Shown in pieces: positions 47,101-50,100 of a stretch of DNA of 64,000 nt. The position numbers are program-made. Source of the stretch: Escherichia coli (lineage in GTDB: Bacteria > Pseudomonadota > Gammaproteobacteria > Enterobacterales > Enterobacteriaceae); the NCBI RefSeq assembly GCF_002854065.1, contig NZ_CP024147.1; one strand, written 5' to 3'. Position 1 is the stretch's first letter, and each line of letters opens with the position of its first letter.

Positions 47101-50100
47101 AATCGTTGGGCGTACCTACAACCAGGACACCATGCCACCGTGGGGACTACCTGAACGGCGTGTACGACAGCACGGGGCACCTGCTGCGTGAGTTTGCTTA
47201 CGACGAAAACCACTGCATGACGCTGCACCGCCAGCCGGGCGGCGAAGGGTATTATTACCAGTGGGGCTGGTATGACGGTCCGGATGATGCGGCGTGGCGG
47301 GCACCCCTCCGAAATCTTCACCGTGACACCCCGCCCGGTATCAAATCCGGCCTCTTTCAGCCAGTCGCCCTTAAGGTTCAGGCTGGGGTGTCGTGAGTAG
47401 TACGTGGTCATGTAGGTTTTGCTGTTTATGTGGCGGGCTCTGACATAGCCGACTTTATAGCGTCGCTGTGTTTTGGAAATGGTGACTTCTGGCGTAATAT
47501 CGTGTTCAGCCATGATTAACTACTCCTGTTAGTTGCTTGTGGTGAGCGGCTGTTACAGGCGGCCACCTGTAGCAGTCGCGTTAAATATCAACGCATTACC
47601 TTCATTACCTGCTTCATCTTCTCCTGCGTGATCGCCATATCCAGAATACGGCAGATCACTTCCTGATCGTCTGCTTTAAGCTCAGGGAAAGATCATCAGA
47701 AGTTCACTTTTTGTACTAAATAATTCGCATTTTATGTTTAAAAATTGAGATATTCCTCATTACCTGAAGCTGTTTTTTATTGCTTATACATGATCAAATA
47801 CTCCTTACATAATTAAGGAGAACAAAATGGAACTTAAAAAATTGATGGAACATATTTCTATTACCCCCGATTACAGACAAGTCTGGAAAGTGGAACATAA
47901 ATTATCAGATATTCTACTGTTGACTATTTGTGCCGTTATTTCGGGTGCAGAAGGTTGGGAAGATATAGAGGATTTTGGGGAAACACATCTCGATTTTTTG
48001 AAGCAATATGGTGATTTTGAAAATGGTATTCCTGTTCACGATACCATTGCCAGAGTTGTATCCTGTATCAGCCCTACAAAATTTCATGAGTGCTTTATTA
48101 ACTGGATGCGTGATTGTCATTCTTCAGATGATAAAGACGTCATTGCAATTGATGGAAAAACGCTCCGGCATTCTTATGATAAGAGTCGCCGCAGGGGAGC
48201 GATTCATGTCATTAGTGCGTTCTCAACAATGCACAGTCTGTTCATCGGACAGATCAAGACGGATGAGAAATCTAATGAGATTACAGCTATCCCTGAACTT
48301 CTTAACATGCTGGATATTAAAGGGAAAATTATCACAACTGATACGATGGGTTGCCAGAAAGATATCGCAGAGAAGATACAAAAACAGGGCGGTGATTATT
48401 TATTCGCGGTAAAAGGTAACCAGGGGCGGCTTAATAAAGCCTTTGAGGAAAAATTTCCGCTGAAAGAATTAAATAATCCAGAGCATGACAGTTACGCAAT
48501 GAGTGAAAAGAGTCACGGCAGAGAAGAAATCCGTCTTCATATTGTTTGCGATGTCCCTGATGAACTTATTGATTTCACGTTTGAATGGAAATGGCTGAAG
48601 AAATTATGCGTGGCAGTCTCCTTTCGGTCCATAATAGCAGAACAAAAGAAAGAGCCAGAAATGACGGTCAGATATTATATCAGTTCTGATGATTTAACCC
48701 CAGAGAAGTTCGCCAGAGCAATCCGAAACCACTGGCACGTGGAGAATAAGCTGCACTGGCGTCTGGACGTGGTAATGAATGAAGACGACTGCAAAATAAG
48801 AAGAGGAAATGCAGCAGAATTATTTTCAGGGATACGGCACATTGCTATTAATATTTTGACGAATGATAAGGTATTCAAGGCAGGGTTAAGACGTAAGATG
48901 CGAAAAGCAGCCATGGACAGAAACTATCTGGCGTCAGTCCTTGCGGGGAGCGGGCTTTCGTAATCTTGCCCTGGTTCGTTGAGTTTTACTGCATTGTCGG
49001 TAATTTAGGCATCTCCTTTGTCCGTAGCTTGTTTCAGCGTCTATAATGGGCGTTAATAAATTGGCAAGTCGGGAACTAGATGTTTTCTTAATGGTATGTT
49101 GGCAGAAGAATATGTTCTGCAAGTTGAAGATTTGTTGGTGCTTTATTTAAAAGGGTGTAGTGCAAATATCTACAATTTCAAGCAGGCATTATTGTCGTAA
49201 AAACGCTTTACCGGACACACGACATTCACAATGTGTGTTAATTTTACTGACATCTTTCAAAAGGAGCGTAATCATGCCGCACATCGACATTAAATGTTTT
49301 CCGCGTGAACTGGACGAACAACAAAAAGCAGCACTTGCTGCAGATATTACCGACGTTATTATTCGCCATTTGAACAGTAAAGACAGTTCGATAAGCATTG
49401 CTCTACAGCAGATTCAACCAGAATCTTGGCAAGCTATCTGGGATGCCGAAATCGCGCCCCAAATGGAGGCTTTGATAAAGAAACCCGGTTACAGCATGTA
49501 ATGCTTAACCTGCCGTAACTCGCTTGCCGCTGGTAACAAACGTGCCAGCACCTAAATGATGCAACGTATTGAGCTTATCATCATCAAACTGCCAGCGGCC
49601 TTCGACAAATACCTGTGCGTCTGCCGCTGCTGATACTACCTCGCCAAACAGTGTGTCGTATTTTTCTTGCGCGGAAGTCGCAGGTAGCAAGCGGCACTCC
49701 ATCCACGCCAGACATTTTGCCTCGACCAGAGGCAAACCAAGTACCGGACCTTTCACAACCGGAATGCCATAGCAATTAAATTTATCTTCATCACGCCCCG
49801 ACACACTTCCCACCGCCCACGTCCAGTTAGTTGCTGCAACGCCCGGGATAACGATGCCAAATTTACCGTTATGTTCAATCAACTCCCTGGTCCATGTCGA
49901 TTTATCTACCACAATCGCCACGCGTGGAGGTTCAAACTCCACCGGCATTGACCAGGCTGCAGCCATAATGTTACGCCGCTGGGATTGCTCATCGAAACTG
50001 GTGATCAAGACCGTTGGGCCATGATTTAACAGACGGCTGGCATGGTGTAATTCTATGGGGATGAATCGGCTCATGGTATCGCCTCGCGAAGAAGGTTTTT

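Follow-up and report, generated by a model that had tools for sequence, protein, structure and literature searches.

The ansP–pptA region of Escherichia coli contig NZ_CP024147.1 (assembly GCF_002854065.1) carries a transposase gene next to the remains of an Rhs toxin locus. What element does this gene belong to, can it still move, and did it truncate the genes beside it? In the window, the whole stretch of 64,000 nucleotides analysed here, the feature is, as judged by sequence comparison, the well-known "H-repeat" insertion sequence of E. coli in its full length of 1,291 bp, with its gene ydcC. H-rpt was reportedly described, as the H-repeats of Rhs elements, by Zhao et al. in J Bacteriol 175:2799 in 1993, and ydcC of E. 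coli K-12 (b1460) is taken here to be H-rptE, which belongs to the RhsE element as its H-repeat. The window covers the ansP–pptA (RhsE) locus of E. coli, and its transposase gene is ydcC, of the H-rpt/ISEc1 element; an H-repeat beside a decayed Rhs toxin locus is in its usual place, and this one is already known and ordinary. We hold with high confidence, as a single reading, that an H-rpt occupies the ydcC position, that it is not a fresh insertion and that it is probably a resident relic.

The transposase gene, an orthologue of ydcC, is an ATG-to-TAA ORF on the plus strand at 47827..48963, and the complete 378-aa ORF claimed in the earlier note is thus borne out. With 1,137 bp it is the only ORF of the element and occupies 88% of its 1,291 bp, in agreement with the ISAs1 pattern of one ORF in about 1.2-1.5 kb. 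Its product has the composition of an ISAs1-type transposase, DDE_Tnp_1 (PF01609; residues 102-343, E 1.5e-30) with an N-terminal DDE_Tnp_1_assoc domain (PF13808; residues 8-94, E 2.6e-32), and reaches 407 bits (cut-off 70) over the whole NCBIfam equivalog model NF033564, 'ISAs1 family transposase' (1-314/314). These matches and the RefSeq naming as ydcC confirm the earlier assignment to an ISAs1-family H-rpt transposase. The protein is equal in length to K-12 YdcC and YhhI, from which it differs at 15 and 11 residues, respectively, and is 35-53% identical to the nearest family representatives outside Escherichia. The catalytic residues D109, D172 and E306 are all present; in a 53-sequence alignment of the ISAs1 family, D109 and E306 never vary, and D172 occurs in 49 of 50 sequences. 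With 28,925 cluster representatives at E <= 1e-3, the family is very large; a search of solved structures found no relative.

A Shine-Dalgarno sequence, AAGGAG, lies 6 nt 5' of the transposase ATG and is contained in the 3' arm of a 7-bp hairpin on the plus strand (CTCCTTA-CATAAT-TAAGGAG, 47801..47820), the loop of which is a -10-like hexamer belonging to a promoter-like match, TATACA-17-CATAAT, at 47785-47813. The RNA fold of the hairpin has a predicted energy of -8 kcal/mol (z = -2.7 versus shuffles). Such a hairpin around the ribosome-binding site could conceivably block translation of read-through transcripts; no counterpart of it was found in the ISEc26 relative.

The limits of the element were set by comparing 12 copies in different flanks, including those of K-12 yhhI, ydcC and ybfL, of strains AHM8C212RI, C11, 88-3493 and Santai, and of two plasmid records. 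Similarity to copies in other contexts begins at 47683 and ends at 48973, which defines a complete H-rpt/ISEc1-type insertion sequence of the ISAs1 family, 1,291 bp in length, on the plus strand; it is the sole H-rpt copy in the window, where no solo ends occur either. The interval 47700-49060 proposed previously does contain the ORF, but starts 17 bp inside the left end and overruns the right end by 87 bp. Every copy compared starts with CAGGG and ends with CCCTG. The left terminal inverted repeat (IRL) is CAGGGAAAGAT (47683..47693) and the right one (IRR) is ATCTTGCCCTG (48963..48973), which overlaps the final base of the transposase stop codon; IRL and the reverse complement of IRR match at 10/11 positions, or at 13/18 if extended, and the right end of K-12 ybfL, ATCTTTCCCTG, matches the left repeat perfectly (11/11). 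Inverted repeats of the ISAs1 family begin with CAGGG and accompany a 10-bp direct repeat (PMC11946415), as in ISArsp11 (PMC6305408). The window termini, with boundaries fixed independently by copy comparison, share the CAGGG start, although the convincing repeat, at only 11 bp, falls short of the 14-22 bp quoted for the family. All E. coli H-rpt copies examined have the short repeat, which thus characterizes the subgroup and is no defect of the window copy.

The earlier note saw no terminal inverted repeats by eye. They are indeed hard to see, yet they exist. A blind inverted-repeat search of 47500-49200 yielded 23 chance pairs but not the real termini, which contain no exact run longer than 5 bp and so escaped it. 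Being too weak for the eye or a blind search, these repeats can be found only through copy comparison. An Rfam scan gave significant matches in the left flank only, and within the element nothing except a chance-level sR19 match straddling its left end (47654-47703, E 0.57).

Membership of the E. coli H-rpt group was defined as a nucleotide identity of 95% or more to both H-rptB and H-rptE along all 1,291 bp. Aligned end to end, the window element is 97.3% identical to the K-12 yhhI copy (H-rptB) and 96.9% to the ydcC copy (H-rptE), and over exactly 1,291 bp its identity to these and other copies ranges from 96.9 to 97.8%. A 99.9% identical gene in RefSeq is named ydcC, ISAs1 family transposase, and is flanked by Rhs debris on one side and pptA-yddH-nhoA-yddE-narI (narV position) on the other. 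RefSeq annotates H-rpt/ydcC as a matter of routine. The name ISEc1/ISEc5 is taken from the RefSeq annotation of 97% identical copies: those with 97-98% identity to the window element bear the product name 'ISAs1-like element ISEc1 family transposase', and ISEc5 is used for K-12-type copies. The protein of the window lineage, in contrast, carries only the name 'ISAs1 family transposase', presumably because of its private substitutions.

The gene order at the locus is ansP, an Rhs-tip toxin/immunity region, a vgrG fragment, an rhs fragment, a symE fragment, H-rpt, pptA, yddH and nhoA. It is that of genome CUWW06, where the gene carries the name ydcC, and it places the element at the distal Rhs end beside pptA. 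The left side of the element is occupied by the 5' part of vgrG (45704-47151), an rhs core fragment of 153 bp (47149-47301) and a symE-like gene that is truncated, and the description of the transposase as next to rhs debris therefore holds. K-12 H-rptE/ydcC has the same position between Rhs debris and pptA-yddH-nhoA, as well as the same length of 1,291 bp, the same 378-codon ORF and the same CAGGG...CCCTG termini. The two loci differ in their junctions. In K-12 the element is preceded on its left by the tail of yncI, an ISEc26-type pseudo-element, whereas the left flank in the window is a remnant of a helix-turn-helix (HTH) gene; the right end of the K-12 element is fused to window-equivalent 49185, hence 211 bp of backbone are missing relative to the window. 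The K-12 form of the right junction is found in 1888 of 5426 genomes, and the window form in about 29.

The HTH remnant consists of the last 30 codons of the gene on the minus strand (47588..47682) and is truncated by the element's left end. The stretch 47545-47682 shares 97.8-99.3% identity with intact HTH genes beside symE in other E. coli genomes, which continue as CATCAACCTGC... where the window carries the element, and is matched at 100% in strain 100416, which shares this junction. The 12 bp to the left of the element (CTGCTTTAAGCT, like CTGCGTTAAACA in K-12) had been considered as a remnant of an ISEc26 tail, and this was rejected since the flank is the 3' end of the HTH gene. On the right, alignment identifies conserved chromosomal backbone upstream of pptA (48974..49273, plus strand), whose alignment with strains AHM8C212RI and C11, at 97-98% identity, begins exactly at 48974; in these strains the unoccupied sequence ...CCTAACA|GTTCGTTGAG spans the equivalent point. 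The two flanks of the window copy come from unrelated DNA, and the native continuations of both are known and differ. Strain 88-3493 has the same right junction, and the window copy was considered as a recombinant sharing its right part with that strain; the differences are evenly spread and give this no support.

Alternative junctions recur at the tips of the element in other strains. The right end is joined at 48974 in the window form, at 49185 in the K-12 type and at 49445 in STO_Bone4, and left-end junctions lie exactly at the tip at window-equivalent 44308 and 44729. These positions support rearrangement at the tips of the element itself.

Target duplications of 6-14 bp were sought at the 12 H-rpt copies. 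A 10-bp duplication was seen at one of them and was absent from the window copy and the 10 others; the check for a target-site duplication recommended in the earlier note accordingly found no direct repeat flanking the window element. The exception is a sister copy in O121 strain RM8352, flanked by a perfect 10-bp GCGTTAAACA duplication. In O157:H7 strain PV15-279 the corresponding site is uninterrupted, with a single GCGTTAAACA inside an ISEc26 transposase gene, and this pair of occupied and empty sites indicates that this type of element has transposed in nature. The 10-bp duplication would thus be a trait of the element type that has probably been erased at the window copy. In experiments, H-rpt transposition is reported never to have been seen (PMC3032704, citing Zhao et al. 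1993).

By analogy with other DDE insertion sequences, a single DDE transposase would bind the short CAGGG-tipped terminal repeats and cut at the ends of the element, which would then insert with a 10-bp target duplication, as seen for the O121 sister copy and not for the window copy. The window copy is not a fresh insertion, its left tip being fused inside the HTH remnant and its right tip resting on the backbone upstream of pptA. This arrangement, together with the lack of a target duplication, suggests that at least one flank was replaced after insertion, probably by a deletion adjoining the element or through recombination of one H-rpt copy with another.

Related systems share most of these features. 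ISAs1 of Aeromonas salmonicida and other members of the family, such as ISArsp11 and Frankia Francci3_2330/2941, resemble the window element in having a single DDE ORF in about 1.3 kb, CAGGG-starting terminal repeats and conserved D109/D172/E306; they also have a 10-bp target duplication, which for H-rpt was seen at the O121 sister copy. H-rpt differs from them in the shorter terminal repeats noted above and in that most sampled E. coli copies are without the duplication. The ISEc26-type element (a pseudogene, yncI, in K-12 and intact in O157:H7) belongs to the same family, has a near-identical terminus, CAGGGCAAGATCA, and is also found in Rhs loci, but it is only about 67% identical to the window element at the nucleotide level and is absent from the window. 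The article 'IS4 family goes genomic' contains no mention of ISAs1.

Among complete E. coli genomes, the element is present in 5342 of 5426 (98.5%), at a median of 5 places per genome and with a copy number ranging from 1 to 18. Only 25 of the 25,077 places in these genomes are plasmid-borne, and 24 of 72,556 PLSDB records carry the element. The genomes closest to the window have a single place (CUWW06, XJ34 and XJ6-3) or two (100416). In each K-12 Rhs locus examined, H-rpt lies downstream of the rhs gene in the same orientation. Pseudogenes are common among the copies, examples being ybfL, ybfD and ybfQ of K-12 and those in O121 and Santai.

The position of the element beside truncated vgrG and rhs genes had led to the suggestion that H-rpt mediated the deletions that truncated them. 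Its tips do coincide with several alternative deletion or recombination junctions at the pptA locus across strains, the window copy is devoid of a target duplication, and in strain Santai the middle of an rhs gene is replaced by H-rpt. The joints in question, however, are off the ends of the element: the vgrG|rhs joint (47149-47151) lies about 530 bp, and the rhs|symE joint (47300-47301) about 380 bp, to the left of its left end, and both link non-IS sequences via 2-3 bp overlaps typical of illegitimate recombination. The only local junction for which the element can account is that of its left tip with the HTH remnant or that of its right tip with the backbone, and in sister strain XJ34 a further deletion halts 36 bp short of the element. 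The suggestion is therefore not supported and, for these two junctions, is largely refuted; that the element made them is very unlikely.

The earlier note also called the transposase intact, and this stands for the reading frame and for D109, D172 and E306, but not for several other positions. Seven substitutions are private to the window lineage, giving T13, V19, F139, T173, W256, P292 and R297 in the window allele against I13, A19, V139, A173, G256, A292 and T297 in the consensus, and all seven are nonsynonymous, with no synonymous and no non-coding change. I13T, A173T and G256W affect strongly conserved positions: I13T falls at a position that is always hydrophobic, and A173T adjoins catalytic D172 at a residue that is A in 49 of 50 relatives. 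The background dN/dS between H-rpt copies is 0.16-0.21. As a rough estimate, seven nonsynonymous changes out of seven have a P of roughly 0.07 under neutrality, a value that is not significant and leaves some room for positive selection. In XJ34, the sister copy has a mutated right terminus, CCATG. An intact frame, as read from sequence, may thus not mean an active transposase. Because the lineage has a single or near-single copy and its changes are solely of amino acids, some of them at conserved positions, the most likely reading is a resident relic with weak activity or none, rather than a currently mobile element.

Several observations speak for a currently active insertion sequence, able to move or to cause new deletions in its genome: the 378-aa ORF is complete with its catalytic triad, both CAGGG termini of the window copy are intact, the gene has a ribosome-binding site and a promoter-like site, H-rpt copies are under purifying selection (dN/dS about 0.2), and elsewhere a copy of this type is flanked by a clean 10-bp duplication for which an empty site exists. 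Present activity is nevertheless unlikely. With one or two places in the closest genomes, the window lineage shows no sign of spread, the private substitutions all change an amino acid, among them G256W and, next to the catalytic Asp, A173T, and experiments are reported never to have shown H-rpt transposing (PMC3032704). A different explanation regards the gene not as a selfish element but as a domesticated part of Rhs loci that serves the host, such as a recombinase or regulator that helps to shuffle Rhs tips, in which the lineage changes are adaptive. Its near-universal and nearly always chromosomal occurrence in E. coli, its constant orientation downstream of K-12 rhs genes, the low dN/dS between copies and the seven-to-zero excess on the window branch would suit such a role. 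Against it, all the hallmarks of an insertion sequence are there (sharply defined ends, repeats at the termini, and a 10-bp duplication for which the empty site is known), the copy number varies widely among genomes, and many copies are pseudogenes; the private substitutions strike positions conserved family-wide, which speaks for decay rather than refinement, and their excess is not significant against neutrality. Domestication is accordingly very improbable. It is also very doubtful that H-rpt has been repeatedly active in natural E. coli and, at the same time, that the transposase of the window lineage has been reshaped by selection rather than simply decaying; the basis offered for repeated activity is the occupied and empty pair together with the alternative junctions exactly at the tips at the pptA locus. 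The reading as a resident relic is preferred.

Collectively, the 10-bp duplication paired with an empty site provides natural-history evidence for transposition of the H-rpt type, and the exact limits of the element separate the junctions in Rhs debris that it can explain from those that it cannot. An intact transposase ORF may hide substitutions at positions conserved throughout the family, and an intact frame is thus no evidence of an active element.

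The transposase gene of the element, ydcC, is a complete open reading frame of 378 codons running from ATG to TAA on the plus strand (47827..48963), as the earlier note had claimed, and is preceded by the ribosome-binding site AAGGAG 6 nt 5' of the ATG. Residues 8–94 of its product match the Pfam domain DDE_Tnp_1_assoc and residues 102–343 match DDE_Tnp_1, while the NCBIfam equivalog NF033564 ('ISAs1 family transposase') is matched over the whole model with 407 bits (cut-off, 70 bits). The gene bears the RefSeq name ydcC in E. coli CUWW06 and in strain 100416, which are 99.9% and 99.8% identical, respectively, to window positions 47500–49300, and in which the gene order is pqqU, yncE, ansP, Rhs-tip toxin and immunity gene, vgrG pseudogene, symE pseudogene, ydcC, pptA, yddH, nhoA, yddE and narI. 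In K-12, ydcC (b1460, 'H repeat-associated putative transposase') occupies the equivalent position, with rhsE/ydcD/yncI on one side and pptA on the other, which identifies the element as the classical RhsE H-rpt. The domains, the NF033564 match, the gene name and the position at RhsE all bear out the previous assignment to the ISAs1-family H-rpt.

The limits of the element have been defined by comparing it with K-12 ydcC, yhhI and ybfL, with copies from a number of other strains, and with two plasmid records. Wherever the flanks differ, similarity between copies begins at 47683 and ends at 48973, giving an element of 1,291 bp, the length that Zhao and co-workers reportedly found in 1993 for H-rptB and H-rptE. 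All copies compared start with CAGGG and end with CCCTG. The left end (CAGGGAAAGAT, from 47683) and the right end (ATCTTGCCCTG, to 48973) match each other in inverted orientation at 10 of 11 positions (13 of 18 if extended), and the match is perfect (11/11) in the K-12 ybfL copy. By our estimate, the probability that a 10/11 match arises by chance at independently defined boundaries is about 1e-5. The earlier note could not identify these repeats by eye, since the real pair is absent even from a blind inverted-repeat search, which returned 23 chance pairs; copy comparison nevertheless supplied both the limits and the repeats. A search of the whole window revealed a single copy of the element and no solo ends.

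Members of the ISAs1 family have terminal repeats that open with CAGGG, together with a direct repeat of 10 bp (PMC11946415); ISArsp11 is a worked example (PMC6305408). In transposase type, catalytic residues, CAGGG termini and size the present element agrees with the family, and the 10-bp duplication, absent from the window copy, is seen in a sister copy in E. coli O121 RM8352. One departure is that the inverted repeats are shorter than the quoted 14–22 bp, a feature common to all E. coli H-rpt copies examined. The element is the ydcC/H-rptE copy of an already known insertion sequence.

Aligned with 50 diverse relatives (35–53% identity), the window protein has the residues D109, D172 and E306; the first and the last are invariant, and D172 is shared by 49 of the 50 relatives. 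The dN/dS ratio between copies is 0.16–0.21. Seven substitutions (I13T, A19V, V139F, A173T, G256W, A292P and T297R) are private to the window lineage when it is set against seven further full-length copies; all are nonsynonymous, with no synonymous change and none in 157 non-coding bases. Position 13 is hydrophobic in 50/50 relatives, position 173, adjoining the catalytic D172, is alanine in 49/50, and position 256 is glycine in 30/50 and tryptophan in none. Strain XJ34 has four of the seven changes together with a mutated right terminus, CCATG. Such a 7/7 outcome has a probability of roughly 0.07 under neutrality and 1e-4 under background constraint, by our rough estimate. The simple reading is that constraint has been relaxed in a resident element present as a single copy, and positive selection is a possible alternative. 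The last ~215 bp (48758–48973) differ at 0–2 positions in 10 of 12 copies and at 5–6 in the other two, against 5–9 differences per 215 bp elsewhere in the element. The Santai copy is a mosaic relative to the window, almost identical in the middle and divergent at the ends, a pattern suggestive of gene conversion between copies.

A 7-bp hairpin, CTCCTTA-CATAAT-TAAGGAG (47801–47820; −8 kcal/mol, z = −2.7), includes the ribosome-binding site in the arm on its 3' side, and its loop is a −10-like hexamer. Translation of read-in transcripts is blocked in IS10, and by analogy the hairpin could block translation of transcripts reading in from outside. No equivalent was found in the relative ISEc26, and hence this role is proposed with reserve.

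The earlier note had further suggested that the element made the deletions truncating vgrG and rhs, which does not hold, at least at those joints. The vgrG homology stops at 47151 where an rhs-core fragment begins at 47149, and the latter stops at 47301 where a symE-like fragment begins at 47300; these short-overlap junctions are separated from the element's left end by ~530 and ~380 bp. A further deletion in XJ34 (window 45826–47646) leaves 36 bp left of the element. A 146-aa ORF (47073–47513, minus strand) is a chimera of 70 SymE-like toxin codons and read-through antisense to the rhs/vgrG fragments, and is not a real gene. Two Rfam matches, isrA and symR-like, lie at 47314–47442 (+) and 47508–47582 (+). 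The isrA match is strong (119 bits, E 5e-27) and antisense to the truncated symE-like gene, and the symR-like match is weak, its 39 bits not reaching the gathering score. Although the toxin gene of this type I module lacks its C-terminus, the antisense RNA seems to survive. In E. coli d1-58 and D6, symE and a helix-turn-helix (HTH) gene are paired in tandem module repeats, in the order CHC2 primase, XerC recombinase, small toxin/immunity genes, symE and HTH. An 8,758-bp circular Shigella flexneri record is made up of xerC, an H-rpt, symE and the HTH gene, and might represent such a module excised as a circle.

Upstream of the vgrG fragment, in an unusual order, 44600–45483 holds two ORFs, an orphan Rhs-tip-like toxin of 176 aa that has no Pfam match and a lipoprotein immunity-like product of 118 aa that matches NF045617 weakly. 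At 44096–44104 the closest genome, CUWW06, has an IS1 that the window lacks, with a 9-bp alignment overlap that would be its target duplication.

The left flank (47545–47682) is 97.8–99.3% identical to the 3' end of the HTH gene adjoining symE in other genomes, excluding strain 100416, which has the same junction as the window and matches at 100%. The intact gene continues with CATCAACCTGC... at the point where the window has the element, and therefore the left end truncates it, leaving a 30-codon remnant (47588–47682, minus strand). On the right, backbone starts exactly at 48974, and in AHM8C212RI and C11 the sequence ...CCTAACA runs directly into GTTCGTTGAG without the element. Since the two flanks are unrelated, at least one of them must, judging from these sequences, have been replaced after insertion. 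The right end is joined to 48974 in ~29 of 5426 genomes (window type), to 49185 in 1888 genomes (K-12 type) and to 49445, inside pptA, in STO_Bone4; the left end is joined to 44308 in STO_Bone4 and to the window equivalent of 44729, inside the orphan toxin ORF, in C11. Only five genomes have the window's left junction. Element-adjacent deletions and recombination between copies would each fit these junctions at the tips. A block of Rhs core, ydcD and ISEc26 that matches the left part of RhsE in K-12 is found at the yafV locus (yafV-ivy-fadE) in O121 RM8352 and O157:H7, so that this part and the left junction of the K-12 H-rpt look transplanted between loci.

Of 5426 complete E. coli genomes, 5342 have a match to the element and 4936 of these have a copy that spans 80% or more of its length, with a median of 5 and a maximum of 18 places per genome (CUWW06, XJ34 and XJ6-3, one each; 100416, two). 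Only 25 of 25,077 places are on plasmids, and 24 of 72,556 PLSDB records have the element, several of these being megabase-sized.

The window copy, between ...GCTTTAAGCT on the left and GTTCGTTGAG... on the right, has no target-site duplication, the check proposed in the earlier note. Among 12 distinct copies checked, only that of O121 RM8352 has one, a perfect 10-bp GCGTTAAACA on both sides. The empty site of this insertion was rebuilt and searched for in genomes. In O157:H7 PV15-279 the site is uninterrupted, and a single GCGTTAAACA lies within an intact ISEc26 transposase gene, at its 3' end. The query was covered to at least 80% in one place by 310 genomes, a count that was checked by alignment for PV15-279 only and may include occupied sites with joined flank pieces. 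According to the literature, transposition of H-rpt has not been observed (PMC3032704). The pair of occupied and empty sites indicates that this element type has transposed in nature, making the duplication expected of the ISAs1 family, and thus provides natural-history evidence that H-rpt transposition has happened.
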